Assembly (NCBI GenBank): GCA_026066175.1
Contig: GCA_026066175.1_4721.2
DNA length: 64,000 nt
DNA from: a phage
Reading direction: 5' to 3' (one strand)
Shown here in pieces: positions 5,711 through 49,474 of this stretch. Every line of letters starts with the position of its first letter. The first letter of the stretch is position 1. The notes beneath the pieces are model-generated. The model made no database searches. It was not told the DNA's origin and saw nothing but the letters and a program-made list of their open reading frames with translations. The translations under genes and the position numbers were made by a program.

Positions 5711-6544
5711 TTACTTAGCTTTCGGATTATACGGACTAACATGTTGTTGCATTCGTTGGATTGTTTCGTAGTACGGGTTATAATGAGTGAACATATTGTT
5801 GTATGGATGGTAGCCGTAAAGCGCATTTTGCCTTGCCGGTGAGAAACCTTTTTGAGAAGGACGATTTGAATTTACTGCGAGCACGTAGTAAACCAAATTT
5901 TGATGGTCGAATGTTCCTTCGTTTTTGAAGGTGTCAGCATAGGCGCTTACCGCAGGAGCAAGTCTATCACCATCGGTTGTAATGATCGTACCATCCGGGT
6001 AAACTTCTCGAACGATACACCATGTTCCGATGAGAACATCTTCGGGTGTCTTATTACTGTATCCGACTGTAACGGTAAGGTAAGTATCGAATCCTCCTGA
6101 GCGCTGCGGATGTCGATAAATTGGGCCAGTCGTTTCTGCTTTATCGGTTACGGTTTTTTCGTAAGGACACTTCTTGATTGCTTTGATGTAAATATCGGGA
6201 ATCTCTAATACCGCCTTATCAGGATGAATTCTAAAATGATTCTTGAGTAAGCCCAAAAGGTTGGTTGCTACCACGTCGTGAGGTAGTACCCAATAACTGG
6301 TAGGGGAGTCATCGCCGTCTCTCTTGGAGAAGATGACTGCCTTGTTATCGTCGTCTGGTAGACTGAAGAAAACGATTGACTCAATAGGCATAGCCAGCTC
6401 ACCACAACAGGGGTCAGCGGATAACACCCAATTGTATTTGTTGTCCGTTTCGTATAAATGTTCTGTTCTGTCGATACTACGATCCTTCAATTGGATGTAG
6501 CGTTCACGTTGTTTCTTGGTTAATTTACGGTAGATAGTGGTCAT
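5711..6544 (-). CDS. hypothetical protein, paralog family of 5711/6630/7431 genes (277 aa)
   Basis: N-terminus MTTIYRKL; shares VREVYPDGTIITT and PIYRHP...YLTVT segments with the 6630 gene product. Confidence 0.75.
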   Translation of the reverse strand: MTTIYRKLTKKQRERYIQLKDRSIDRTEHLYETDNKYNWVLSADPCCGELAMPIESIVFFSLPDDDNKAVIFSKRDGDDSPTSYWVLPHDVVATNLLGLLKNHFRIHPDKAVLEIPDIYIKAIKKCPYEKTVTDKAETTGPIYRHPQRSGGFDTYLTVTVGYSNKTPEDVLIGTWCIVREVYPDGTIITTDGDRLAPAVSAYADTFKNEGTFDHQNLVYYVLAVNSNRPSQKGFSPARQNALYGYHPYNNMFTHYNPYYETIQRMQQHVSPYNPKAK

Positions 6545-7854: not shown

Positions 7855-7886
7855 TTATCACTAAGGTAATATAGTCGTGAAATAAA
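7855..7886 (-). promoter_or_regulatory. 32-nt promoter-like repeat; minus strand reads TTTATTTCACGACTATATTACCTTAGTGATAA
   Basis: Identical 32-mer recurs at 48100-48131; contains TATATTAC; lies 20-50 nt upstream of the 7835 start. Confidence 0.45.
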
Positions 7887-7919
7887 CTGGAGTAATAGAA
7901 ATAATAAGACGGCATAAGA

Positions 7920-9931: not shown

Positions 9932-11244
9932 GGTTCAATAGCTCCTGCTCGTAACAGCATAATAACGAACGGTGTGAAATAATAACGATCTAACGGAGAA
10001 AGCAGTGGTATAGCGTCAACCATCTGCTTCAGTGCCGGATGACTGATTGCCTTTTCATCAATCATGTCGCGCACCATACTTTCAATAATCGTCATTGGTG
10101 CTTGGTTGCGATAGAACGCCTCGGTGAAAACGTAGTACGGGTCATCGGCGACCGACGGGAATAACGGAATGCCGTCATACTCCATTGAGGTAAGGTTGGT
10201 CACCAATGGGTTCGTCGGTGGTGTGCTTTCAGGAACAGCCAACGTTTTACCTACATCCTCACCCAGCGACGTGGTCGCAGGCCATATACAGAACCGTGCG
10301 CCACTAAAACGAATTCCACCCGCCGCCGGATACTGATAGAAACGCTTTGTTGACAACAGCGTGAATTTCACCGTCAACCGCGCCTCGTCTTCCCGACGTC
10401 CGTCCATTACCCATTCAAAGACAGAAATCGCATTCGCTTCCTGGCTGTCGTCTACGTTAAGACGTCCGAAGTTCCATGAAGGTTTTCCTTCAAGCGACGA
10501 CCATAATTTCGTAAACGCGTTAACACACCAGGGATCGTAGGTTGCAGCATCTTGACCAGGAACAAGCAGTGTGTTGAGTTCACGGCTGTAGAATTCATGG
10601 TAATACGCGTGACAAAGTCCCAGTGCACGACGGAGATAATCGTACTTACGATTGTATTTCTCCGTTGCCATTACGGGATGTTTTCCGTGCTTTAACTGGT
10701 CTTGGTCGTATAGCGTATCCTCAACGATTTTTGCTTCCAGTTCGATAAGCTGTTTTTCGTCAAGAATACGTTGGAAGGAAATATCGCATTCGTAAGCCGG
10801 TGCTAAGCTGATGTTCTTCGGCGTGATTCGGGTGATCGTGTACACCGCGATACGATGATCGAGACCGGAGATTAACAGCATGTTACCTAAAAGAGGAACC
10901 GATACCGCCGGAAGTATACACGTACCCTCTGATTGAAAACGTGCGGTCCCGTTGTCGTACGACGGCGTCAATGATGACATTAACTTGATAGGGTAATGTC
11001 TGATGCGACGGTACTGCTGTTCAGCGATGTCTCGGTTAGCTTGAAAACTGCTTTGTTCATCATCGCGACCGAGAATCTGTTCGTAATAATCACATTCTAC
11101 GGAATAACCGGATGCGTAATTCACTAACCCGATTTGACTATTGTATTGCTCATCTACCACCGCAGAACGATAAACATCGTCGCGAGCCTTCGCGGGTTGT
11201 TGGGGGTTGATGATGGGTTTCGCGGGCTTCTTAGCGAGCGCCAT
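9928..11244 (-). CDS. hypothetical protein (438 aa)
   Basis: ATG start; 4-nt overlap with the downstream gene. Confidence 0.8.
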   Translation of the reverse strand: MALAKKPAKPIINPQQPAKARDDVYRSAVVDEQYNSQIGLVNYASGYSVECDYYEQILGRDDEQSSFQANRDIAEQQYRRIRHYPIKLMSSLTPSYDNGTARFQSEGTCILPAVSVPLLGNMLLISGLDHRIAVYTITRITPKNISLAPAYECDISFQRILDEKQLIELEAKIVEDTLYDQDQLKHGKHPVMATEKYNRKYDYLRRALGLCHAYYHEFYSRELNTLLVPGQDAATYDPWCVNAFTKLWSSLEGKPSWNFGRLNVDDSQEANAISVFEWVMDGRREDEARLTVKFTLLSTKRFYQYPAAGGIRFSGARFCIWPATTSLGEDVGKTLAVPESTPPTNPLVTNLTSMEYDGIPLFPSVADDPYYVFTEAFYRNQAPMTIIESMVRDMIDEKAISHPALKQMVDAIPLLSPLDRYYFTPFVIMLLRAGAIEP

Positions 11245-13172: not shown

Positions 13173-13224
13173 CGCAGATTCCTGTTTGAAAGATAAGATA
13201 TCACATGATGGTCGACAGCATAAA

Positions 13225-38617: not shown

Positions 38618-40117
38618 ATGAGCGAACAAGAACAAAAACTCAAGAAGAAACTGCTCGGTATTCAATGTCGACACATCAGTTATAACGAAGCCAACGATGG
38701 CAGCAAGAACGATCTCATGATTGCAAAAGAGATCATGTTCTTCGATGACAACACACAAGCCACCAACCTGCGGTTCTTTGAAAACCACAAACGTCCGTTT
38801 TGGGTTACAGTTGAAAGCAAACGTAAGAACAAATATAAAAAGGAAAGCGAGAAGCTCTCAAACGTACGTCGTTATGAGGTACGCCAAAGCGAACTGGTTG
38901 AGAAAATCAGTTCGGTGCTTTATAAACGACGTGCTGACGATAACACCCGTTTACAACAGCTTGCGCGGAGTCCTTACCTCTATGGAACGGACGTTAGCGC
39001 CAGCTGCTATTTAAAAACCCAGTACAATACAAAATGGCCGGAATACGTTGATAAACTGCCTGCTTCTATCGCATGTTTCGATATCGAAACCGACGTTGTC
39101 CACGGGCACGGTAAGATCGTTTGTATGTCTATTACAATGGGCTACAACGCGATTCTTTGTTACACCCAGGACTTCGTTGGTCATATTCCGAATGCGATTG
39201 AGAAAACCCGTGAGAAGATTCGTTATTACCTGGCCGACCGTTTAAACACCAAAGAGGATCCTCACGCCTTTGAAAAATACCATTACGATATTCGCATTGT
39301 AGAAAGCCCTGCGCAAGCGGTGATTCAATGCATGCAGAAGGTGCACGAATGGCAGCCGGATTATCTCCTTGGCTGGAACATCGCGTTCGATATTCCGCGT
39401 ATGCTCCAGGCATTGCAGGACGAAGGTTATCGTCCCGAGGATGTTTTCTCCGATCCTCGCGTACCACCGAAATACCGTTTAGCACGCTGGGTACCACCTA
39501 AAACCGATAAGGTATCGGCATCAGGCCGTAAAACCAACCTTACCCTTGAGCAAACCTGGCCAATGTTTTATACGATGGCCACGTATCAGGTTATGGATGC
39601 GATGTGTGGTTATAAGTTCGTTCGTTTAGGAAGACCGGATGAAGGACGCTACTCACTCGATGCGGTGTTAGAGCGAAATAAATGCCATACGAAATTAAAA
39701 GCGATCCCAGGTACCGAAGGGTTCACGGAGCTCGCCTGGCACGAAGAGATGCAAACGAACCATCAAATCGACTACGGTGTATATAACCTTTGGGATAACC
39801 AAGGCATCGAGGCGTTGGACCAGAAAACAAAAGACTATTCGATGACCATCCCTATCCGTTTAGCAGCGTCGGATTTGAAAGATTTCAGTTCCAACCCTAA
39901 ACGTATCTGTGATAAACTTTTCTTCGTTTATCTCAACCGTGGGGAAGTCATGGGATGTACTGCTGATGACATGACGCAAGAGGAGGATAAATGGGTGATT
40001 TCACGTGCAGGGCATATCGTGACCTTGCCGTGCGATCTCATGGCGGATAACGGCATCCATCTCTTCTGGGATATGCCAAATCTAAGAAGCTATATTCGAT
40101 TATTTGTTGCGGATTAA
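38618..40117 (+). CDS. family-B DNA polymerase N-terminal/3-prime-5-prime exonuclease domain protein (499 aa)
   Basis: DEDDy motifs in PolB-like order and spacing: Exo I ACFDIETD (residues about 152-158), Exo II LLGWNIAFDIPRML (about 251-264), Exo III YSLDAV (about 345-350). No polymerase motifs A/B/C. Confidence 0.75.
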   Translation: MSEQEQKLKKKLLGIQCRHISYNEANDGSKNDLMIAKEIMFFDDNTQATNLRFFENHKRPFWVTVESKRKNKYKKESEKLSNVRRYEVRQSELVEKISSVLYKRRADDNTRLQQLARSPYLYGTDVSASCYLKTQYNTKWPEYVDKLPASIACFDIETDVVHGHGKIVCMSITMGYNAILCYTQDFVGHIPNAIEKTREKIRYYLADRLNTKEDPHAFEKYHYDIRIVESPAQAVIQCMQKVHEWQPDYLLGWNIAFDIPRMLQALQDEGYRPEDVFSDPRVPPKYRLARWVPPKTDKVSASGRKTNLTLEQTWPMFYTMATYQVMDAMCGYKFVRLGRPDEGRYSLDAVLERNKCHTKLKAIPGTEGFTELAWHEEMQTNHQIDYGVYNLWDNQGIEALDQKTKDYSMTIPIRLAASDLKDFSSNPKRICDKLFFVYLNRGEVMGCTADDMTQEEDKWVISRAGHIVTLPCDLMADNGIHLFWDMPNLRSYIRLFVAD

Positions 40118-40210
40118 CCTTCGTTCTGTAAAAGTTTACCGATGTATGGAAATTTCTGTGAGATACCAAAGGTACTCGATAAGTTTAGGAATTTCTGGAC
40201 GGAGGTAATT

Positions 40211-41347
40211 ATGTTGGAACATCTTGAGTGTTTGGACAATGAATACTTAAATTTCACCAATCGTCGTTATCGTATCTTCGAGGACGGTACCCTCTACGAT
40301 TATAAAGAGAATCGCAAAGTACCCGTCATCATCGAAGACAACAACTCTTACGTTATCATTGACTGGTATCGTGGAGTGGGTAAATACGAGCTGGGAATGA
40401 TCATACTTACGGCATTTGATCGAATCCATATCCCTAACTATCTCTACGACGAAATCGAATCTTTGTTTATTGACAACGATCCGACGAATTTCTCGTATAG
40501 TAACCACATCTATCGTTTCCGTAACGGTCCGTTAGCGGTGGAAGGGTATCCGGGGTACTACTACATCCCGTTTGCCACGTACTATGCGTTAAATGAACAA
40601 GGTGAATGTTTAAGTCTCTTGTCGGGGGAAGGTATAACGTGGACAATGACGCCACAGAACGGCACACGACGTCCAGGCTATCGATACAGAAAAGTAACAC
40701 CCGATAGTGGGTTCACAGCCCAACTGTATCGTCATCGTGCGTTGATGTTAACGTTCCGTCGTTATGATGCGAGCGTTGTAGAAATGACCGTTAATCACAA
40801 GAACGGGATTAAAGGCGATGATTGGCTGGATAACCTTGAATGGGCAACCTACAAGGAAAACAACAATCATGCGCGTATCAACGGCTTATGCGACGGTAAA
40901 GCAAAACCCGTTAAGATCTTTGATTACGTTCGTCACACCGAGCGTCAATTCAAAAGCATCGCTGAAGCAGAACGCGCTTATCCACACGTTGCAAAAGGAC
41001 GTTTCAAATGGTGGGTTGAGAATCCGCCGAAACGCATTCCAGAATGCAACCTGTACATTAAACATGCGTTCGATAACACCCCATGGCCAGAATGGAAACT
41101 GGGTGACGATCGTCGTATTGAGGATGTATCAGGTATTCCTATCATTGCACTGAACATGGTAACCGGCGAGAAACGAGTGTATCCGTCGGTTACTGCTGCA
41201 GGTAAAGATACGAAAACAAGTTGGATAACCGTAAGACGTCATTGCGATAGGCGTGTTGTTCCTGCGAAACAAGCCTGGTGCTTCCGTTATGTTGATGATG
41301 TCAAGAATATGCCGGAGTTAACCTCCCCACCAACAATCGAACAGTAA
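40211..41347 (+). mobile_element. HNH homing endonuclease ORF (379 aa from ATG 40211)
   Basis: GGAGGT SD 7 nt upstream; HNH core LYRHRALMLTF...VNHKNGIKGDDWLDNLEWATYKENNNHA (nt about 40763-40886). Confidence 0.8.
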
Positions 41348-41349
41348 CG

Positions 41350-41830
41350 ATAACAGGTCCCCCTACTTGTAATGAGTGGGTGAACTCTCTTTAATTGCTG
41401 GAAACCTTTAATGCCCCTCCACACCACAACGCAATCCGAAAGGGTAAACGTGACGGTTGTCGAAAGACAGAAAGAAGTTGGAGGGGATCACCTAAGCTGA
41501 AATAAAAGCCGTTACTTTCTGGATATGGGAAGAGTCTAACGGTGCTAAGGGTTCTGCTAGAAATAAGGTAACCGTAGCAGCGAAGACCCTACGGACTGTC
41601 GTGACCAACTCACTGAGTTGGCGTGGTGAAACACGGACAGACTACGGGTAACGTTCAACGACCATCCGGTTGCGCGGAGTAGGAGAAATAGGATGTTCTC
41701 TGAAAAGGGAGAAGTCGGTCGAGGTGTTGTAGAAACACCGTTGCTTTGCTTCGCAAACATAAGACAGGCTAAGATATGGTCTATATTAAATGTAATACTA
41801 TGATGTATAGAATTTAATGGCTCGATATTA
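41350..41830 (+). ncRNA. candidate group I intron catalytic core (or degenerate remnant)
   Basis: About 500 nt without ORF; R-like GTTCAACGACCATCC (41653-41667) and S-like AAGATATGGTCTA (41771-41783) can form P7 (GACCA/TGGTC) with a compensatory change relative to the canonical GACTA/TAGTC; Q/P-like GCAATCCGAAAGGG at 41431-41444; several local hairpins. Confidence 0.4.
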
Positions 41831-41859
41831 GCAGTTCATATCCAAATGGGCAGATCCTT

Positions 41860-42075
41860 TTGAATCTATCCAGAGCGTGCGTATTTCGTGAGCTTTCACG
41901 GATTGAGGGCGTCTCTGATTATCAATTCAGGAAGCTGGGTATTAACTTCATCACGGGCGGTAAAACGAATGCGGTTGACTTCTGCCGAATCGTTCATAAA
42001 GCCCCGTCGATGTTCGAACTGTTAGCGCATTTTGACGCGACACGTCCGAAGGAAGCGCCAAAGACCCTTGATTGA
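41860..42075 (+). CDS. small ORF (71 aa, TTG start); possibly the 3-prime exon of the upstream gene rather than an independent gene
   Basis: Open frame begins at 41818 right after the intron-like core; followed by an A11 run and a bidirectional terminator. Confidence 0.25.
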   Translation: MNLSRACVFRELSRIEGVSDYQFRKLGINFITGGKTNAVDFCRIVHKAPSMFELLAHFDATRPKEAPKTLD

Positions 42076-42100
42076 AAAAAAAAAAGAAACGCATGCGAAG

Positions 42101-42131
42101 CCCCTCCCCTGGCGGAAGCCGGAGGGAGGGG
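42101..42131. terminator. hairpin CCCCTCCCCTGGC-GGAA-GCCGGAGGGAGGGG with flanking A11/T-rich tracts
   Basis: Variant of the conserved hairpin; A-run 42076-42086 gives a U-tract for the minus-strand cluster, TTTTATGCG on the plus side. Confidence 0.6.
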
Positions 42132-42148
42132 TGGAGGTTTTATGCGTT

Positions 42149-42634
42149 TTATGCGCGTTCGCTGCTAACCATGACTTTATAATCAGCGTCGGTTAAGAAG
42201 ATAGACAGGAAGCCATGTTCTTTGCAAAGCTCACTAAGGACCTCGGTAATGATTTCATTGATCAATGGTTTATTTGCGAGAGCGTAGATATACCCATCAG
42301 TAAAAGAAAGGGCATGTTTAATCATCGGCTCATGAGACGCCAGGACAAGGATCACATGGTGTTGACCATCATCGGTAACGACCGCTTGCGTCGACACAAA
42401 GAAACCAGTGAAGCCGCATTGGTAACTGGCTTTAGGGATATATAAATCACCTAAAGCTTCGTCACGCGCTTTCATGTGGGTTTCAGGCGTGATGCTACTA
42501 AGCTGATCTTCGGCGATATCCAGAGTCTCTTCAACGGTTTTCAGAATGGCTTCTTTGAAATCCTTGCGGTAGACCTGGATAATTTCACGGTCGTTGATGT
42601 AATCGCCGGATTCGATGGTAAAGTTCAAGTTCAT
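42149..42634 (-). CDS. small hypothetical protein, tandem array member (161 aa)
   Basis: GGAG SD followed by an A-run before ATG; C-terminal EHGFLSIFLTDADYKV strand similar to the family motif. Confidence 0.7.
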   Translation of the reverse strand: MNLNFTIESGDYINDREIIQVYRKDFKEAILKTVEETLDIAEDQLSSITPETHMKARDEALGDLYIPKASYQCGFTGFFVSTQAVVTDDGQHHVILVLASHEPMIKHALSFTDGYIYALANKPLINEIITEVLSELCKEHGFLSIFLTDADYKVMVSSERA

Positions 42635-42687
42635 TTTTTTTTACTCCTGATTTATGTGTCGATTGATTGACGTATTAATTTATGTTT

Positions 42688-42706
42688 GAAGGTGCTGTTC
42701 ACCTTC
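42688..42706 (-). terminator. hairpin GAAGGTG-CTGTT-CACCTTC
   Basis: Directly after the stop of the 42708 gene; near-identical 24-mer also at 18872-18895. Confidence 0.4.
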
Positions 42707-42707
42707 G

Positions 42708-43139
42708 TTAGATATCATCCGGTGTATATTCGATGTTGTAAACGACGTAACGGTCTGACGCATGAACGACGAGCTCGACGGGGAAATCATAATGCTTGGT
42801 TTTGTCTCGAACATGCTGGGTAAAGAGATCCGTATAACGGATTAAGTCTTCCACGGTATACTCAGAAGGGAAGAAGACATCGATGGTTATTGACTTTTCA
42901 TAGAGGCGTATGACCAGCTTATCCAGAAGGTTGGCATATCGGTTACACGGGGCGACGTCCAGAAGACAGAAATCACCGTCTTCTGCGTCTCGTGGTATCC
43001 ACATCGTGGTATCTTGTAACGACGTTTCAAGGATCTCGAAAATGCAGTCTGCTGTAAGTCTTAGTTTATCTGTTATTTCACGGTTAGGTGAATAATGGTC
43101 ACGAATGCTTTTCACTGCTTCTTTGATGGAGAAAGTCAT
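42708..43139 (-). CDS. small hypothetical protein, tandem array member (143 aa)
   Basis: MTFSIK N-terminus, ILETSLQDTTMW, KSITIDVFFP, HYDFPVELVVH. Confidence 0.75.
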   Translation of the reverse strand: MTFSIKEAVKSIRDHYSPNREITDKLRLTADCIFEILETSLQDTTMWIPRDAEDGDFCLLDVAPCNRYANLLDKLVIRLYEKSITIDVFFPSEYTVEDLIRYTDLFTQHVRDKTKHYDFPVELVVHASDRYVVYNIEYTPDDI

Positions 43140-43153
43140 CGTTGATGCTCCTT

Positions 43154-43663
43154 TTAAAAGATATCAAGCCATGAGGATGGGGAAACCAGTTCGCTTGTGA
43201 AACATTGCGTACCGTCGGTATTTACCGCATGGGTAAGTTTATAAGCCTTAACGGCCGGTTTACTGCCGATGGTGAGGACGGTTGTCATGTCGAGCCATTC
43301 GGCACGATGGAGAAATGCCATATCAGCCACCTTCTGTAGACCATTTGCTTCAAAATCGATACGGTCGTTAAGCGGCATCAATCGGATTTCAATACGTTCT
43401 TTGAAGAGTTGAAACGTTACTGAAAACTCATGCGGTTTGGCATTAAGACATAAAGGCCCTCGATGGAAGTGTTGGTATGCTTCATTCTTGTTATGCTCGA
43501 AAACCCAGCAGTTGTGGACAAGAGAAGCGTCTTGTAACGAGGATTCCAGGTAGTCAAATACCTTGTTTATTGTTTGCTCGAGCAGAGACGCTAATGAATC
43601 TGGATATCCAGCAAATGCTGCTTCGGCGATCGATTTTACTGAAATGGTATTGTTCTGGTTCAT
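43154..43663 (-). CDS. small hypothetical protein, tandem array member (about 169 aa)
   Basis: Listed start 43690 is TTG; ATG at 43663 has an AAGGAA SD; YLESSLQDASLVHNCW matches the family. Confidence 0.7.
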   Translation of the reverse strand: MNQNNTISVKSIAEAAFAGYPDSLASLLEQTINKVFDYLESSLQDASLVHNCWVFEHNKNEAYQHFHRGPLCLNAKPHEFSVTFQLFKERIEIRLMPLNDRIDFEANGLQKVADMAFLHRAEWLDMTTVLTIGSKPAVKAYKLTHAVNTDGTQCFTSELVSPSSWLDIF

Positions 43664-43667
43664 CTCT

Positions 43668-44120
43668 TTATTCCTTGTCGGATTCGTCAATGTATTTGGT
43701 GTCGTAAGACATATGCTGGATTAATTTTCTAGGCTCGATGAAAATACGACACGAGATAAATACATCGGGATCATACTGCTCTACACAACGCCCGAAAACC
43801 AGCTTTGCAGTCTGGCGCATCAAGGCTATTTCCCGATCATTCATCTCATTATCGAATTCGATGTTTATCGTGATTTTATCAGGAAATAAATAGATAGAGT
43901 AATTGCCACTAATACCACCATCATCAAAACGATAATCGTTGTGGTAATGGTGAAGCTTACCGTCGTGTGTCGTCTGGTACCATCCGATGATACTATCAAG
44001 TCCCACACCCAAGCGGCGTTCGAATGCCCAATTAATAACATCCTCGACAACGGATGCGGGCGTGGGACCATTGAATAATCTATCCAGACGCTTTTTCATC
44101 GATTTGGTTTTCACGTTCAT
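43668..44120 (-). CDS. small hypothetical protein, tandem array member (150 aa)
   Basis: ATG start; C-terminal QYDPDVFISCRIF. Confidence 0.7.
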   Translation of the reverse strand: MNVKTKSMKKRLDRLFNGPTPASVVEDVINWAFERRLGVGLDSIIGWYQTTHDGKLHHYHNDYRFDDGGISGNYSIYLFPDKITINIEFDNEMNDREIALMRQTAKLVFGRCVEQYDPDVFISCRIFIEPRKLIQHMSYDTKYIDESDKE

Positions 44121-44150
44121 TGTTTCTTTTCCTGTTATAGTCGGTATACA

Positions 44151-44184
44151 GCCCTTCCCCGGCCTTGATGGCTAGGGAAGGGGC
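44151..44184 (-). terminator. imperfect GC hairpin GCCCTTCCCCGGCC-TTGAT-GGCTAGGGAAGGGGC
   Basis: Intergenic within the array. Confidence 0.4.
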
Positions 44185-44196
44185 TATGTTACGTTG

Positions 44197-44598
44197 TTAC
44201 GCTTCGCAATCAGCTGAAGATGTTGCACGCTTCTTGCCATCAAAATGCCAAAGTAGACACGCTGGGAAGAGGCAAACATCTAGAGTGCAAGGGATGTCGT
44301 ATTTTTCTTCCAGTTCGTAAAGACAATCCGCGAGCTGCTTTCGTGCATTCTCATCGTGTCGTAATGCGATATGACCTAATCGTTGTTGGTCGTTCTTTAC
44401 ATATACCTCGAAAAGTATGTGTTGTTGAAAAGCATTGATTCGTACCCCTTCAAGTATATCGGTGTCGAGCATGCGAGTAAAACTCATTGCTGTCGACGAT
44501 GTCGAGGTTTCTTGTTTAACCAGATCGATCATGGTGGGAATATACGAATGGTCGATGTTATCGACGACCGCTTTAGCGACGGAATCTGCAATGTTCAT
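44197..44598 (-). CDS. small hypothetical protein, tandem array member (133 aa)
   Basis: C-terminal KYDIPCTLDVCLF. Confidence 0.7.
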   Translation of the reverse strand: MNIADSVAKAVVDNIDHSYIPTMIDLVKQETSTSSTAMSFTRMLDTDILEGVRINAFQQHILFEVYVKNDQQRLGHIALRHDENARKQLADCLYELEEKYDIPCTLDVCLFPACLLWHFDGKKRATSSADCEA

Positions 44599-44628
44599 CT
44601 TTAATCCTTAATGTTATCGTTACCGTAT

Positions 44629-45048
44629 TTAGGTGGTTTTCGGGTTATGTTCGTATTTGACGATCGTTACTGGAATATTGCAACGGTCGAAACAGTTGAA
44701 TGAAATTGTTGTTGGGATATCGAACGCCACGACTCTGGCTTTAATATACCCGATTAAGTCGTCTTCGATAAATAAAACCTCAGGCTTATCGTTAGCATCG
44801 ACCCAAACACCAACACAGAGCTTGTCGTTATTGGTCAGTACGTTGATAGTGTATGTACTGTCGTCCATGTGAATATGCGATCTTCTACAAGAATTGAGTA
44901 GAGCAGTCGGACTATTCGCAGTCGCCCGCAACTGGTTGCTGGTCTGGATCGTGTTCAGGACATCACGTATGATGTTATCTACCAACGTAAATAGTTTCTC
45001 AGTAACGTTCTCTTTTAGAAGCTGCATCAAAGAAACAGTTGTGGTCAT
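44629..45048 (-). CDS. small hypothetical protein, tandem array member (139 aa)
   Basis: C-terminal AFDIPTTISF. Confidence 0.7.
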   Translation of the reverse strand: MTTTVSLMQLLKENVTEKLFTLVDNIIRDVLNTIQTSNQLRATANSPTALLNSCRRSHIHMDDSTYTINVLTNNDKLCVGVWVDANDKPEVLFIEDDLIGYIKARVVAFDIPTTISFNCFDRCNIPVTIVKYEHNPKTT

Positions 45049-45809
45049 TTACGATCCTCTTTAACAACAGATGTTACCCACGACGTGATGGCTGGATGAA
45101 AACAGAGGGTGAAGGTGACGGATGTTTTGTATCTCGATGCGCAGTTTCGCAGTCGTGTTTCGAAGATTCTTTTCGATTCAAGATCGTTGTTGTCGATAAC
45201 AGACAAACCGCTTACTATCCCAATAACGTTGATGCCTTTGTCTGTCTGAGTTGTGACGATGCGCCGTAACGGTTCATACTCGTAGCTGTATACGCACCCA
45301 TTCTTAGGACCGGGTGTCGAACTGGCTGCACGGGCGACGGCAACTAACATATCGACAATACGATCGATTCGAGTCCTTGCGTTGTCACTGCCGGTCTCGG
45401 TTGAGATTTCTTTCGTATCGAATATTATTACTCCGCTATCGTTAGATCCCGTGGGGAAACACATAGCTAAACGAATAGGATATTCGTACATTGAGGTTCT
45501 TTTTTGGAAAATTTCAGATAGATGTTGTTCATACGTCAACACATCAACATCATCTAGAGATGGGGGTAATACAGCCTGAATAATAACGCCGTCATCGGTT
45601 AAACCGATTCCCAGGAGACGTAGTTTATTGTCGCTTGGTACTGTTTTCTGGAGATATGCTTTACCGTTAACGATATCGGTATCCCACGTATCTTCACATA
45701 ACAAATTTTCAAACCGATCGAAAATATGGTCTACGGTATCGATGAGTTCTGTGACACGTCGTTGTTGGTTGGTTTCAATCAATTGTTGGATTCTTTCTTT
45801 GATAGACAT
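45045..45809 (-). CDS. hypothetical protein, tandem array member (254 aa)
   Basis: ATGA overlap with the downstream gene; MYEYPIRLAMCF. Confidence 0.75.
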   Translation of the reverse strand: MSIKERIQQLIETNQQRRVTELIDTVDHIFDRFENLLCEDTWDTDIVNGKAYLQKTVPSDNKLRLLGIGLTDDGVIIQAVLPPSLDDVDVLTYEQHLSEIFQKRTSMYEYPIRLAMCFPTGSNDSGVIIFDTKEISTETGSDNARTRIDRIVDMLVAVARAASSTPGPKNGCVYSYEYEPLRRIVTTQTDKGINVIGIVSGLSVIDNNDLESKRIFETRLRNCASRYKTSVTFTLCFHPAITSWVTSVVKEDRK

Positions 45810-45811
45810 GA

Positions 45812-46264
45812 TTACTCCTTAGTTCCTTCTTTGTCGGCTTTATACTCCACACAGTGGAATTCACATTCATCGATAAACCTGAGTGTTACTGTAATAGGGA
45901 AATCGCGCGGCGAAGCGGATTCCTTAAATGCGCTATCAGCAACATCAGATAACCGACGTATGGTATTTCCTCCTTTCGCCACGAACGGGAATTTAATGTT
46001 AATAAGGATACGGTGTTTGTAAATAGTAAAGACGACAGTGCTGTCGAAATGCACACCAGTTAAAGTCATTGTTGGGATGCGTTTTACGACGGAGAAATAT
46101 GTCCCGTCAATATCGCTACTTCCCACTGACCATTCATCGGAATTGCGCAGACTTCCCTTGAGGAGTTCAACGCTTTGCGTGACCACCTCAGCAACCTGTG
46201 CGACGTAGGTGTCTTTGTGCGTATCGAACAGTTCATTTACGCTGGATTTGAATGAAAAAGCCAT
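45812..46264 (-). CDS. small hypothetical protein, tandem array member (150 aa)
   Basis: MAFSFK N-terminus, ILINIKFPF, PRDFPITVTLRF. Confidence 0.75.
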   Translation of the reverse strand: MAFSFKSSVNELFDTHKDTYVAQVAEVVTQSVELLKGSLRNSDEWSVGSSDIDGTYFSVVKRIPTMTLTGVHFDSTVVFTIYKHRILINIKFPFVAKGGNTIRRLSDVADSAFKESASPRDFPITVTLRFIDECEFHCVEYKADKEGTKE

Positions 46265-46308
46265 TGCCGTGATCCTACCTTTTCTTTATCTGTGATAAAA
46301 TTGTTTAT

Positions 46309-46330
46309 GTGTTCCCTCTTACGGGAACAC
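46309..46330 (-). terminator. hairpin GTGTTCCC-TCTTAC-GGGAACAC
   Basis: Perfect 8-bp stem after the stop of the 46338 gene. Confidence 0.4.
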
Positions 46331-46337
46331 GTCATTT

Positions 46338-46847
46338 TTAACTATCGGTTTTGCTGTCCTCTGGATCGTAGCGGAATTCGAATAGTTCCGATCCGTCGTG
46401 TCCTGCTATTGTCAACATAATCGGCATGTCGAATCCTCGAGCGCGCGAATGGAGACATTGCGCTAATTTTATTTTCGCATACGCTGCTATTTCGTTGGTT
46501 GCTATACGAGACTCGCCTGAGATGCTGAGTATGATATCAATACTAACAAGGTCGTCGTGTAGCGCAAAACGCCAGCGATCGATACGGGGATTATCGGCAG
46601 CAAGCGATTCGTTTACAAGATAGACTTTTTCATCGAACGACACGGCAGGACTCCAGCATTGTTCGTTCAACAGACATGTCTGAAGTCTTGAAATCGTCAG
46701 ATCGATGATGTCCCAGCACGCAACCAGCGTCATATCGGATACGAGATTGAGAAGTTCGTGTACACGATCTTTTATTTTTAATGCCTCTCCTTGCGGACGT
46801 CCGCAAATACCGTGTGCGTCAACTTTCTTATTAACTTCGTTACTCAT
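46338..46847 (-). CDS. small hypothetical protein, tandem array member (about 169 aa)
   Basis: ATG at 46847 preferred over GTG at 46853; C-terminal GFDMPIMLTIAGHD. Confidence 0.7.
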   Translation of the reverse strand: MSNEVNKKVDAHGICGRPQGEALKIKDRVHELLNLVSDMTLVACWDIIDLTISRLQTCLLNEQCWSPAVSFDEKVYLVNESLAADNPRIDRWRFALHDDLVSIDIILSISGESRIATNEIAAYAKIKLAQCLHSRARGFDMPIMLTIAGHDGSELFEFRYDPEDSKTDS

Positions 46848-46912
46848 AATCACCTCTTTTTAATCTAAATGTTCGTTGGGATTGTTTACCATTTGGCGTC
46901 AGCTTAAAACGA

Positions 46913-47518
46913 TCACATGCTTCCCAGCACGTTCATAAGCATAGAACCCATACGGGAGCTCAAATTCGACGCGCCGGTGTATTCAGCCAGTTGGCGATAG
47001 ACCTCTTCTGGGCTGTCTTCTTCGCCGTCAGCGTTGATATAGACCGAAAAAGAGAGCAGGTCAGTATCCACGTTGACCAACAAACGTCGTTCATTACGAT
47101 CCTTCAGGTTTTCGGTAATCGCAGCTTTCAACAGATCCAATGCGTTAATTGCGCGCAGGATATCTGTATCCGGGCTCTCTAGGGTGATTTTACCTTTCAG
47201 ATCGATGTTGACTTTGGTGACTACCGGACTGAGATCGACTTTAACGTGTTTGTCGGGATTCATGCGAATAACCGCGCGGTCGATATCCGAACCGAAGAAC
47301 GCGATGGTTGGGCCCAACGCTTCGTTGTTCGGATCCATGTTTTCATCCATTCCCGCCTGCAAGAAACGTTCTACGTTATCCAATTCACGATAAACGGACT
47401 CTTCGATTTCCTTCAGGTAGTTTGCTGCGGTTTCATGTTCTTTACGTAGCTCGTCTTTAAGGAGCTGTACGGTGGTTTCACTGGAACGAATGCTGTTAGC
47501 GAATTGGGTGATAGACAT
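46913..47518 (-). CDS. hypothetical protein in array (201 aa)
   Basis: ATG start; family membership uncertain. Confidence 0.7.
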   Translation of the reverse strand: MSITQFANSIRSSETTVQLLKDELRKEHETAANYLKEIEESVYRELDNVERFLQAGMDENMDPNNEALGPTIAFFGSDIDRAVIRMNPDKHVKVDLSPVVTKVNIDLKGKITLESPDTDILRAINALDLLKAAITENLKDRNERRLLVNVDTDLLSFSVYINADGEEDSPEEVYRQLAEYTGASNLSSRMGSMLMNVLGSM

Positions 47519-47572
47519 CTCGAATTCCTTAAATTTCTTAGATTCAATTAATGATGGAAAGCAGAAAAAAAT

Positions 47573-47590
47573 GGTGGGGCGAACCCCACC
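47573..47590 (-). terminator. intrinsic terminator GGTGGGG-CGAA-CCCCACC followed by a U7 tract on the minus strand
   Basis: 7-bp GC stem, GNRA-type loop, A-run 47565-47571 on the plus strand. Confidence 0.65.
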
Positions 47591-47613
47591 AAAACGTCAG
47601 ACACACGCAAAAA

Positions 47614-48039
47614 TCAGTTCAATGACGTGTACAACGCATAACGGCTATAAATCTCGACCGTTGGTCCATTATGGGTTAACAGACCATCCCGGTTGTAGTA
47701 CTGGAAAAACGAATAACGTTTATCGAAGCGGTAGACAAAAGCAATGTCTTTACCAGCAAGACCGGTAATGTTTGGTTTGTTTTTGTCTAACAGCGCTTTG
47801 ACGTTTAACAACGTTGCCGCACGTTCTTTAACGTTAGGGATCAAGCCATCACAATCGATATAAACGGTGTAGCCTGTTTCAGATGTTGCGACTGTCGTAT
47901 TTTGATCGATGCGAAAGATTTTCGTGTTATGCGCACCATCTTCAAGAATCGGATTCTGCTTTTCATATTGACGAGAATCCAAATATGTTTCAACGTGATC
48001 GCGAATAATTCCGATATACCCGAATACTTCTCGTACCAT
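47614..48039 (-). CDS. small hypothetical protein, first gene downstream of the promoter-like repeat (141 aa)
   Basis: ATG start. Confidence 0.7.
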   Translation of the reverse strand: MVREVFGYIGIIRDHVETYLDSRQYEKQNPILEDGAHNTKIFRIDQNTTVATSETGYTVYIDCDGLIPNVKERAATLLNVKALLDKNKPNITGLAGKDIAFVYRFDKRYSFFQYYNRDGLLTHNGPTVEIYSRYALYTSLN

Positions 48040-48099
48040 CTTGACATCCTCTTATATTGGATTGATTACGGTTTGTTAAAAAGATAAGATACTTTACTC

Positions 48100-48131
48100 T
48101 TATCACTAAGGTAATATAGTCGTGAAATAAA
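48100..48131 (-). promoter_or_regulatory. second copy of the 32-nt TATATTAC-containing promoter-like repeat
   Basis: Identical to 7855-7886; 60-90 nt upstream of the 48039 start. Confidence 0.45.
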
Positions 48132-48160
48132 TTGTGTTATACGTGAATTAACAGCATAAG

Positions 48161-48219
48161 CCCTCCTCCCCATCCTCCCAACCCGTAAGGGAAGGGAGGA
48201 TGCAAGGGAAGGAGGAGGG
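48161..48219 (-). terminator. extended nested version of the conserved palindromic hairpin
   Basis: Outer CCCTCCTCCC/GGAGGAGGG around inner CATCCTCCCAACCCGTAAGGGAAGGGAGGATG. Confidence 0.5.
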
Positions 48220-48225
48220 TAGAGA

Positions 48226-48642
48226 TTAAATATCGTGGATGGCGGTGCCGTTTAACCAGCAGTACAGCTTAACGCGACAGGGATAACGATTCGCAGCTAA
48301 GAGTAATTCATCACGCAAACGTTGATAGACTCCATCTTGATGTTCTCGAACGATAGGGTAATCAGCCCAACATTCGATCATCACGTCACCATTAGCCAGG
48401 ATCGTCGTACGCATCCTGTCCTGGATACGACGGTCTTTCTCAGCATTAGGGAGATACATTCCTTCAGTACGAATAAGGTCACCACAAGGCATGGTTAACC
48501 ATTCATTCGTCTTACCGGTGTTCTTATAATCCATCACAGCTTGCATTGCAGTGTCAACGCTAAAAGAAACATAATTCCAAACAGGTGTCCAGTAGGCGGA
48601 CTGGGGAATAAAGGTTGCAGGTTGTTCAAGTGTTTCGTTCAT
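48226..48642 (-). CDS. small hypothetical protein (138 aa)
   Basis: ATG start; C-terminal RYPCRVKLYCW. Confidence 0.7.
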   Translation of the reverse strand: MNETLEQPATFIPQSAYWTPVWNYVSFSVDTAMQAVMDYKNTGKTNEWLTMPCGDLIRTEGMYLPNAEKDRRIQDRMRTTILANGDVMIECWADYPIVREHQDGVYQRLRDELLLAANRYPCRVKLYCWLNGTAIHDI

Positions 48643-48696
48643 GGAGTGCTTTTCCTATTTTTATTTTCTGCACAGGATAAATTCAACAGCATAATA

Positions 48697-48838: not shown

Positions 48839-49474
48839 TTACGCGAAGCGACGCATGTAACCTGCCAGGTAACCGCGGGTATCGAAGTAGGCGATTTCTG
48901 GAATGGCGATGTTAAGGTCGATAGCACGGATTTCAACCTGGCGACGGCTTTCATCATAGATCGCATCCATCAGACGCAGTACTGTCAGGAAAGCCATGCG
49001 GGTATGGTAATCCAGCGGCATGTTGTCGATACCGCGATACAGATAGCGGTTGGCATTAAACGCCCCTTCGCTGTTTTCTTTCCAAATCTTCAGCACGTCT
49101 GCAAAGGCGGTACGGAAGACTTCTGGATTATCAACATCCAGCAATGCGCGGAAAGCAGACATTAAAGAACGCTGGTGACGGATCAACGACTGCGGTGTTT
49201 GGGCCATGGTCGGACCCATTTCTTCCGCGTATTTCTCGAACGGCGCAACCAGAGTTGCAGCACGAGAAGCAACGATAGTTAACGCCGGTGATTCAACCGC
49301 AACCTTTTTCACAGGCTGTTCTTCAACCGTTGGTTTTGGTTGTTCAACGGTTTCAGCAACCGGTTCAACAACAGCAGGTTGTTCTTGTTGTTCCATCACC
49401 TCGTTTTCGACAACCGCTTCTTCAGCCGCATTGCCTTGTTTTGCCGCAAAACGTTGGTCTTTATTCTTGGCCAT
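48839..49474 (-). CDS. hypothetical protein with E/P/V-rich N-terminal region (211 aa)
   Basis: ATG start. Confidence 0.7.
   Translation of the reverse strand: MAKNKDQRFAAKQGNAAEEAVVENEVMEQQEQPAVVEPVAETVEQPKPTVEEQPVKKVAVESPALTIVASRAATLVAPFEKYAEEMGPTMAQTPQSLIRHQRSLMSAFRALLDVDNPEVFRTAFADVLKIWKENSEGAFNANRYLYRGIDNMPLDYHTRMAFLTVLRLMDAIYDESRRQVEIRAIDLNIAIPEIAYFDTRGYLAGYMRRFA

Follow-up and report, generated by a model that had tools for sequence, protein, structure and literature searches.

A probable early accessory operon of a Goslarvirus and its eight-gene family of fast-evolving tandem paralogs

Between positions 42149 and 48642 of a phage contig (GenBank assembly GCA_026066175.1, contig GCA_026066175.1_4721.2; "the window" is the whole stretch of 64,000 nucleotides analysed here), twelve small genes follow one another on the minus strand. 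A first-pass annotation, made from the sequence alone, had described them as about twelve highly diverged paralogs under one promoter, which raises the question of how many of these genes are truly related, how they are transcribed and what they do for the phage. The results point to an eleven-gene early unit containing a family of eight paralogs, and we consider it fairly probable that these genes make up an accessory operon used early by a Goslarvirus, whose proteins are early host-interaction binders.

When compared with 50,697 phage records, the window matched Goslar alone (Escherichia phage vB_EcoM_Goslar, 78% nucleotide identity over half). Goslar belongs to the Chimalliviridae and is a jumbo phage that forms a nucleus. 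On the basis of this match and of gene-by-gene orthology with Goslar, the window was assigned to a Goslarvirus, hence to a nucleus-forming jumbo phage. The twelve consecutive open reading frames (ORFs; 133-254 amino acids, aa) with short or overlapping junctions were all found as first described, and all are real genes; five of them (W02, W03, W05, W06 and W07) had no Goslar counterpart in the gene-by-gene comparison. They are numbered below in order of position.

42149-42634, minus strand: W01, 161 aa, ortholog of Goslar gp70; final gene of the early unit; family membership not demonstrable
42708-43139, minus strand: W02, predicted family member; the protein modelled by AlphaFold2
43154-43663, minus strand: W03, predicted family member
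43668-44120, minus strand: W04, predicted family member, ortholog of gp71
44197-44598, minus strand: W05, 133 aa, predicted family member
44629-45048, minus strand: W06, 139 aa, probable family member and the weakest case
45045-45809, minus strand: W07, 254 aa; predicted N-terminal family domain and a C-terminal half repeating the helix-strand-strand motif
45812-46264, minus strand: W08, predicted family member, ortholog of gp72
46338-46853, minus strand: W09, predicted family member, ortholog of gp73
46913-47518, minus strand: W10, 201 aa, very acidic (isoelectric point, pI, 4.6), ortholog of gp74; family membership not demonstrable
47614-48039, minus strand: W11, 141 aa, ortholog of gp75 (76% identical); heads the early unit; not a family member
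48226-48642, minus strand: W12, 138 aa, ortholog of gp76; outside the early unit and outside the family

The start of W03 was placed at the ATG at 43663 rather than at the TTG at 43690, because its orthologs start with MNQN or MSQN, and the true start of W09 is probably the ATG at 46847.

Family membership was assessed using leave-one-out hidden Markov models (HMMs), each gene being scored against a model lacking that gene and its ortholog, with 500 shuffles for comparison. Clear members were W02 (42.4 bits), W08 (41.1 bits), W09 (32.8 bits, where no shuffle exceeded 5.1) and the N-terminal half of W07 (25.4 bits), with shuffle maxima of 5-10. Weaker scores, yet above those of all shuffles, were obtained for W04 (17.6 bits, shuffle maximum 6.8), W05 (14.8 bits), W03 (13.4 bits), the C-terminal half of W07 (12.6 bits) and W06 (11.5 bits, shuffle maximum 11.4). 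W01, W10, W11, W12 and the next gene (at 48839) scored inside the shuffle range.

Profile-profile comparisons were performed with hhalign on ortholog groups from nine related arrays, reversed-sequence decoys reaching at most 11.9% probability and a minimum E-value of 2.5e-3. Links of 75-100% connected W02, a W02 variant, the N-terminal half of W07 (82-98% to other family groups), W08 (77-98%), an extra paralog of the relatives and W09 (75-82%). The W03 profile matched W04 at 85% (E 6e-6) and the family core, through the W02-like group, at E 3e-4. The remaining genes were compared with a core profile of 37 sequences from which W05 and W06 had been left out: W05 aligned in register over 82 columns (83%, E 9e-6), the C-terminal half of W07 over 29 columns covering the helix-strand-strand part only (64%, E 6.5e-5), and W06 over 36 columns, in register at AFDIPTTISF (11.6%, E 2.6e-3), with W01, W10, W11 and W12 at decoy level. 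The core HMM was also run against every stop-to-stop ORF in the window, 487 in total. Apart from the six members used for training, it recovered W05 (E 3.3e-5) and W06 (E 0.035) and nothing else above noise, which began at E about 1.

On the strength of these four tests (leave-one-out, profile-profile, core-profile and all-ORF), the family is predicted to extend over eight contiguous genes, 42708-46853 (W02-W09), in which six genes are strongly supported, the 133-aa W05 is supported and the 139-aa W06 is weak. The initial count of about twelve paralogs is thus reduced: eight genes lie above chance, as many as the annotation had credited with shared features ("at least eight"), whereas W01, W10, W11 and W12 are indistinguishable from decoys. 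The motifs it had listed are all present, namely the MTFSIK/MAFSFK N-terminus, the E(S/T)SLQD...W segment and the (Y/F)(D/E)(F/I/M)P turn followed by a strand. A homolog search with a concatenated profile of W01, W10, W11 and W12 retained none of 8000 candidates, the selection of candidates being probably at fault.

All eight members are acidic (pI 4.7-5.8), and they can be described as proteins of 130-170 aa, apart from W07 with its 254 aa. W02 was modelled with AlphaFold2 on a family alignment of 42 sequences, which gave a mean predicted local distance difference test (pLDDT) of 87.8 and a predicted template modelling score (pTM) of 0.77. In the predicted structure, two helices at the N-terminus are followed by four strands and a long helix, and a two-strand hairpin closes the chain. 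Conserved columns of the family are mostly buried hydrophobics; the conserved positions of other kinds are the N-terminal S-I-K (Lys in 86%), Trp47 (91%), Asp118 and Pro120 of the Y-D-x-P turn, and Tyr138. The family alignment shows no conserved catalytic constellation, in agreement with the absence of a recognisable catalytic motif noted at first.

The annotation had also proposed that the family would be new if unmatched in databases, and this is what was found. No match at or near any threshold was obtained in Pfam, PHROGs, NCBIfam or PDB sequences, and Foldseek searches of the W02 model against the PDB returned none at E up to 0.001. In BFVD (predicted viral structures), the sole significant match to the W02 model was a Goslar protein of 163 aa (E 1.5e-9, TM score 0.73); this is the length of gp73, the W09 ortholog, and the structure would be an independent model of a paralog. 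A full HMMER scan of 1.84 billion protein-cluster representatives gave 27 matches, of which the inspected subset consisted of Goslarvirus-type orthologs, paralogs or chimeras and one low-complexity artefact; the long proteins P0075, P0081, P0086 and P0088 among the 27 were discarded as spurious, P0088, the one read, being a repeat protein. Beyond Goslarvirus proteins the family was therefore without a match in these resources, and neither sequence nor fold searches detected homologs in other nucleus-forming phages. No paper discussing gp070-074 was found in the literature, and a query for gp71-76 gave unrelated phages only.

The nearest structural neighbours of the family fold are the T3S4/PscP substrate-specificity-switch domain (PDB 5cuk) and PA3611 (3npd). 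Kinship with these was rejected in view of an identity of 5-8%, the blank Foldseek result given above and the lack of any link in sequence or context. The match excludes the N-terminal helical hairpin of the family, and the similarity is a generic fold resemblance, not membership.

Transcription of the array was examined through the following promoter and hairpin features, listed in the direction of transcription.

48161-48219, minus strand: strong stem-loop (-46.9 kcal/mol, z -6.8, 0/200 shuffles fold as well), which ends the upstream, nucleus-dependent unit containing W12
48151-48159, minus strand: TTATGCTGT motif directly after this hairpin, a candidate middle/late promoter whose core is TATG
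48100-48131, minus strand: early promoter element of virion RNA polymerase type, TTTATTTCACGACTATATTACCTTAGTGATAA, 32 nucleotides (nt), containing TATATTAC; an identical 32-mer lies at 7855-7886
47565-47591, minus strand: intrinsic-terminator-like hairpin after W11, 8-bp GC stem then UUUUUUU
46309-46330, minus strand: intergenic stem-loop after W09 (z -4.1, 0/200 shuffles fold as well)
44148-44187, minus strand: intergenic stem-loop after W05 (-27 kcal/mol, z -4.25)
42688-42706, minus strand: intergenic stem-loop after W02 (z -3.7)
42075-42148, minus strand: terminal hairpin and U11 terminator after W01, shared with the convergent exon 2 of the DNA polymerase gene

The core TATATTAC is the published early-promoter core of phiKZ and 201phi2-1 (PMC7058600, Table 2), and the element at 48100-48131 continues with four bases and GTG, as does the extended 201phi2-1 consensus (same table); AT-rich motifs of this type mark promoters of the virion RNA polymerase (PMC7598289). 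The element is retained upstream of W11 orthologs in six relatives, the Goslar version being TACATTAC. The promoter-like repeat noted in the first pass is thus real, at exactly these coordinates, and of the early-promoter type of chimalliviruses. The notion of TATATTAC as a local tandem repeat was rejected, the site holding a single copy. Sigma-70 promoter-like sites were at or below chance (13 found, 15 expected), and tRNA and Rfam scans returned nothing inside the array.

The repeat does not head the whole array, as had been supposed: W12 lies upstream of it, with the -46.9 kcal/mol hairpin between them, and 6/6 relatives also have a hairpin at this position. The early unit comprises eleven minus-strand genes, from 48039 down to 42149, and is closed by a hairpin and U-run terminator. 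The at least five internal hairpins previously reported correspond to the five intergenic stem-loops between genes, to which the terminator after the last gene is added. At the place of the hairpin following W11 the Goslar annotation also has a terminator, and no second early-promoter motif was found downstream of this hairpin.

Expression was taken from a published study of the early-infection vesicle, in which Goslar transcripts at 30 min were compared between infections with knockdown of ChmA, the protein of the nucleus shell, and infections without it; the locus tags were checked against the record. In the knockdown, gp070-gp075 had a log2 fold change of +1.0 to +1.3, like other blocks that stay on (bioRxiv 10.1101/2023.09.20.558163, Supplementary Table 2), and gp048-069 and gp076-093 went down by 3 to 7 log2 units, with -4.5 to -6.1 for gp076, the W12 ortholog (bioRxiv 10.1101/2023.09.20.558163). 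In Goslar, gp070-075 thus belong to the nucleus-independent early class and gp076 to the nucleus-dependent class. Full expression in the absence of a phage nucleus is the mark of genes that the injected virion RNA polymerase reads from the early-infection vesicle. The module of hairpin and promoter coincides exactly with the gp075/gp076 boundary, which gives a unit of eleven genes and places W12 in the upstream nucleus-dependent unit. Coverage calculated from the published counts was 0.8-1.3 reads per nucleotide across gp075-070, and this evenness suggests one transcript with read-through of the W11 hairpin. Of the single promoter first proposed for the array, therefore, W12 is excluded, and the other eleven genes are under one promoter only if the W11 hairpin is read through.

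The TTATGCTGT motif is one of five minus-strand copies of TTATGCYGT in the window (7909-7917, 9954-9962, 13215-13223, 48151-48159 and 48686-48694), against 0.94 expected on both strands, a count of five being reached in 1/100 shuffles. All five are upstream of minus-strand genes and 4/5 directly follow a GC-rich hairpin. As it contains TATG, the phiKZ late-promoter consensus (PMC7598289), this motif may be a middle/late promoter of the Goslarvirus lineage, and the copy that closely precedes the array's early promoter hints at dual promoters.

In three relatives (L004, at about 5760-5800, and L007 and L011 at the corresponding position), an insertion of about 42 nt was observed upstream of the W11 ortholog, right after TATATTACCTT. 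It consists of a palindromic hairpin (CATGATGC..GCATCATG) and a GC-rich segment between duplicated TTACCTT copies, and resembles a very small element, mobile or duplicated, that has entered the promoter or 5' leader.

The array is variable in gene number, with seven genes in Goslar, twelve in the window and 10-13 in relatives. W01, W10, W11 and W12 occur in nearly all arrays and the family members make up the variable part; in relatives, additional paralogs are found between W09 and W08, along with two inserts unrelated to the family and a truncated W06 (L004 9397-9636, 79 aa). Two deletion chimeras of adjacent paralogs were identified, one with the N-terminus of W06 and the C-terminus of W05 (P0076), the other with the N-terminus of W03 and the C-terminus of W02 (P0078), and one relative encodes a 305-aa in-frame fusion of two full family members (L011 8081-8998); W07 looks like an older event of this kind. 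Pairwise ratios of nonsynonymous to synonymous substitution rates (dN/dS, Nei-Gojobori estimates) were 0.13-0.58 for the array genes, the highest values being those of W02 (0.58), W08 (0.35) and W03 (0.31), against 0.02 for an RNA polymerase subunit and the DNA polymerase. In evolutionary rate the array proteins outpace the core genes nearby by a factor of 6-30, still under purifying selection. Diverged tandem paralogs, with gain, loss, fusion and deletion among close relatives, bear out the description of a diversifying family.

The unrelated inserts in the arrays of relatives encode small proteins of 122-124 aa and 151 aa (L004 7027-7401; L006 7851-8219 and 6067-6522). Profile comparison of ortholog groups detected no relation of either to the family, and the 151-aa protein has a weak match to PHROG 21654 (E 7.8e-5). 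Homologs of W10 were confined to Goslarviruses, and W10 itself is 100% identical to a protein of an E. coli O157 assembly, which fits the residence of Goslarviruses in bacterial genome assemblies, where they are common (237 genomes, 38 species; PMC12768965).

The most likely function that can be predicted for these genes is that of early, non-enzymatic host-interaction proteins. The 32-nt early promoter would drive the eleven-gene unit, and synthesis of the proteins would take place in the cytoplasm of the host, within minutes of the start of infection. There, family proteins may act as stoichiometric, non-enzymatic binders of host or competitor targets, and such binding would serve host takeover or would counter defences that the phage nucleus cannot exclude, with paralogs possibly specialised for different targets or host strains. 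A binder role fits the dispensability of the members (Goslar lacks five of eight), their variability and the lack of catalytic residues.

Several points weigh against this interpretation. The proposed role is deduced from timing, turnover and evolutionary rate, and since many early genes of jumbo phages are accessory with no role assigned, "host interaction" is a default guess. Mean dN/dS is below 1, hence an arms race is not demonstrated. The expression data come from Goslar and not from the phage of the window, and 5/8 family members have no Goslar ortholog. Finally, the hairpin after W11 resembles an intrinsic terminator and is followed by no later early promoter, so that expression from one promoter requires read-through.

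Other explanations were weighed on the same evidence. It is unlikely, in our estimation, that all eleven or twelve genes belong to one family in which W01, W10, W11 and W12 are too diverged for sequence methods. Such a broader family could draw on the small size of all the genes, most of them acidic, on the restriction of W10 and W11 to the same lineage, and on an AlphaFold run in which W01, W10, W11, W12, W05, W06 and the C-terminal half of W07 were joined by linkers in one chain (the W06 segment with an alignment of three near-identical orthologs only): in all segments the predicted order was one or more helices, then three to four strands, another helix and two strands. This order is compatible with a shared architecture, but the evidence is weak because the model is poor, with a mean pLDDT of only 42.7 (W11 about 60-76 and W05 about 62-73 at best, W01, W10 and W12 mostly below 50), and because the pattern is common among small alpha/beta proteins. 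Moreover, the four genes score like decoys in the HMM and profile-profile comparisons, W12 belongs to the other transcription class, and all four are near-constant across arrays, unlike the family members. There is similarly little to recommend a family serving the early programme of the phage itself, for example vesicle-to-nucleus transfer or mRNA handling. The early, nucleus-independent class of the block and its position between replication and transcription genes would suit such a task; the failure of sequence and fold searches to detect a homolog in other nucleus-forming phages, the replication of Goslar with five of eight members missing, copy numbers that differ among close relatives and evolution that is fast relative to core genes argue against it.

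Two further explanations appear very improbable. A paralog family packaged in the virion, like the inner-body or ejection proteins of phiKZ-like phages, would have a precedent in the structurally similar packaged protein families of chimalliviruses (bioRxiv 10.64898/2026.04.21.720040), but the orthologs are of the early class and structural genes of the nucleus-dependent class, and the study of the Goslar virion nowhere refers to gp70-76 in its main text, where other proteins are listed as abundant. Decaying or non-functional duplicates would account for the truncated and chimeric copies of relatives (the 79-aa W06 fragment, P0076 and P0078); we give this hardly any credence, given the dN/dS range in all groups, frames that are intact across 6-8 genomes, the transcription of the block in Goslar and the confident folded model obtained from the family alignment.

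The early accessory operon favoured here was compared with known systems. As in early units of phiKZ-like phages (Chimalliviridae), an AT-rich element with the TATATTAC core heads small genes of unknown function, and Goslar orthologs are nucleus-independent; unlike in those units, the genes are Goslarvirus-specific, an eight-member paralog family is present, and the promoter here is predicted from sequence. The host-takeover module of SPO1 and the early genes of T4 and T5 are small, mostly non-essential genes of unknown fold behind early promoters, poorly conserved beyond close relatives. The array resembles these "monkey-wrench" clusters in its small genes behind an early promoter and in its poor conservation beyond close relatives, but the clusters consist mostly of unrelated genes, not of one expanded family, and an activity of the array on the host is only inferred. 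For MGF360/505 of African swine fever virus and the Bcl-2-like and ankyrin families of poxviruses (the "genomic accordion"), a function in host range or immune evasion is established. The array shares with them diverged tandem paralogs in which a scaffold is kept and the rest varies, copy-number change (7-13 genes per array), fusions and deletions, and evolution faster than that of core genes (dN/dS 0.13-0.58 against 0.02); it differs in that proteins and hosts are unrelated and that the established function belongs to the eukaryotic-virus families. The protein family is undescribed and unmatched, but its kind, a lineage-specific tandem family of early accessory genes, is familiar from large phages and eukaryotic DNA viruses.

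Other features of the window complete the description of the locus. Beside the array, the gene of a DNA polymerase (exonuclease-domain) is split (38618-42075, plus strand), 38618-40114 encoding residues 1-499 and 41821-42072, read in a different frame, residues 500-583. The split was recognised because two relatives have uninterrupted orthologs of 583 and 586 aa (97% and 92% identity). The 1.7-kb insert carries an HNH/NUMOD1 endonuclease ORF (40142-41347) and a full-length match to a group I intron (41278-41801; RF00028, E 3e-9, 43.2 bits where the gathering score is 50), and explains the 801-nt gap downstream of W01. The Goslar locus has the same layout, annotated as separate genes and about 800 nt of "non-coding" DNA. 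On the other side, the gene after W12 (48839-49474, minus strand, 211 aa) is the ortholog of gp77 and matches PHROG 18957, of unknown function (E 5.5e-21); unlike the array genes, it has relatives in other phages. The 32-nt early-promoter element recurs unchanged at 7855-7886 (minus strand), where it comes after a CT/GA-rich hairpin and a TTATGCCGT motif and heads six small minus-strand genes (108-277 aa, from 7835 down to about 4268), which probably are another early block.

In nucleus-forming phages the DNA is shielded from nucleases, yet for the first few minutes of an infection such phages are exposed in the cytoplasm. For this early cytoplasmic gap the array provides a defined set of apparently non-enzymatic candidates, restricted to one lineage, expressed early and differing in copy number. 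Even as ordinary accessory baggage, the locus yields corrected gene starts, operon boundaries, an early-promoter element and an intron-split polymerase gene for annotation. A more ambitious proposal, which is tentative and appears to us rather doubtful, is that the eight members are early cytoplasmic effectors of a new class and of a fold not seen before, which nucleus-forming phages would direct against defences or host functions that operate on RNA, proteins or membranes outside the nucleus of the phage, with individual paralogs matched to different host strains. If true, such matching would explain gain and loss across Goslarviruses of E. coli, Salmonella and Shigella. Each of the 237 Goslarvirus genomes in bacterial assemblies (PMC12768965) is paired with a host genome, so that paralog content can be compared with host defences, and the importance of the family would climb sharply if a member countered a defence acting outside the phage nucleus.

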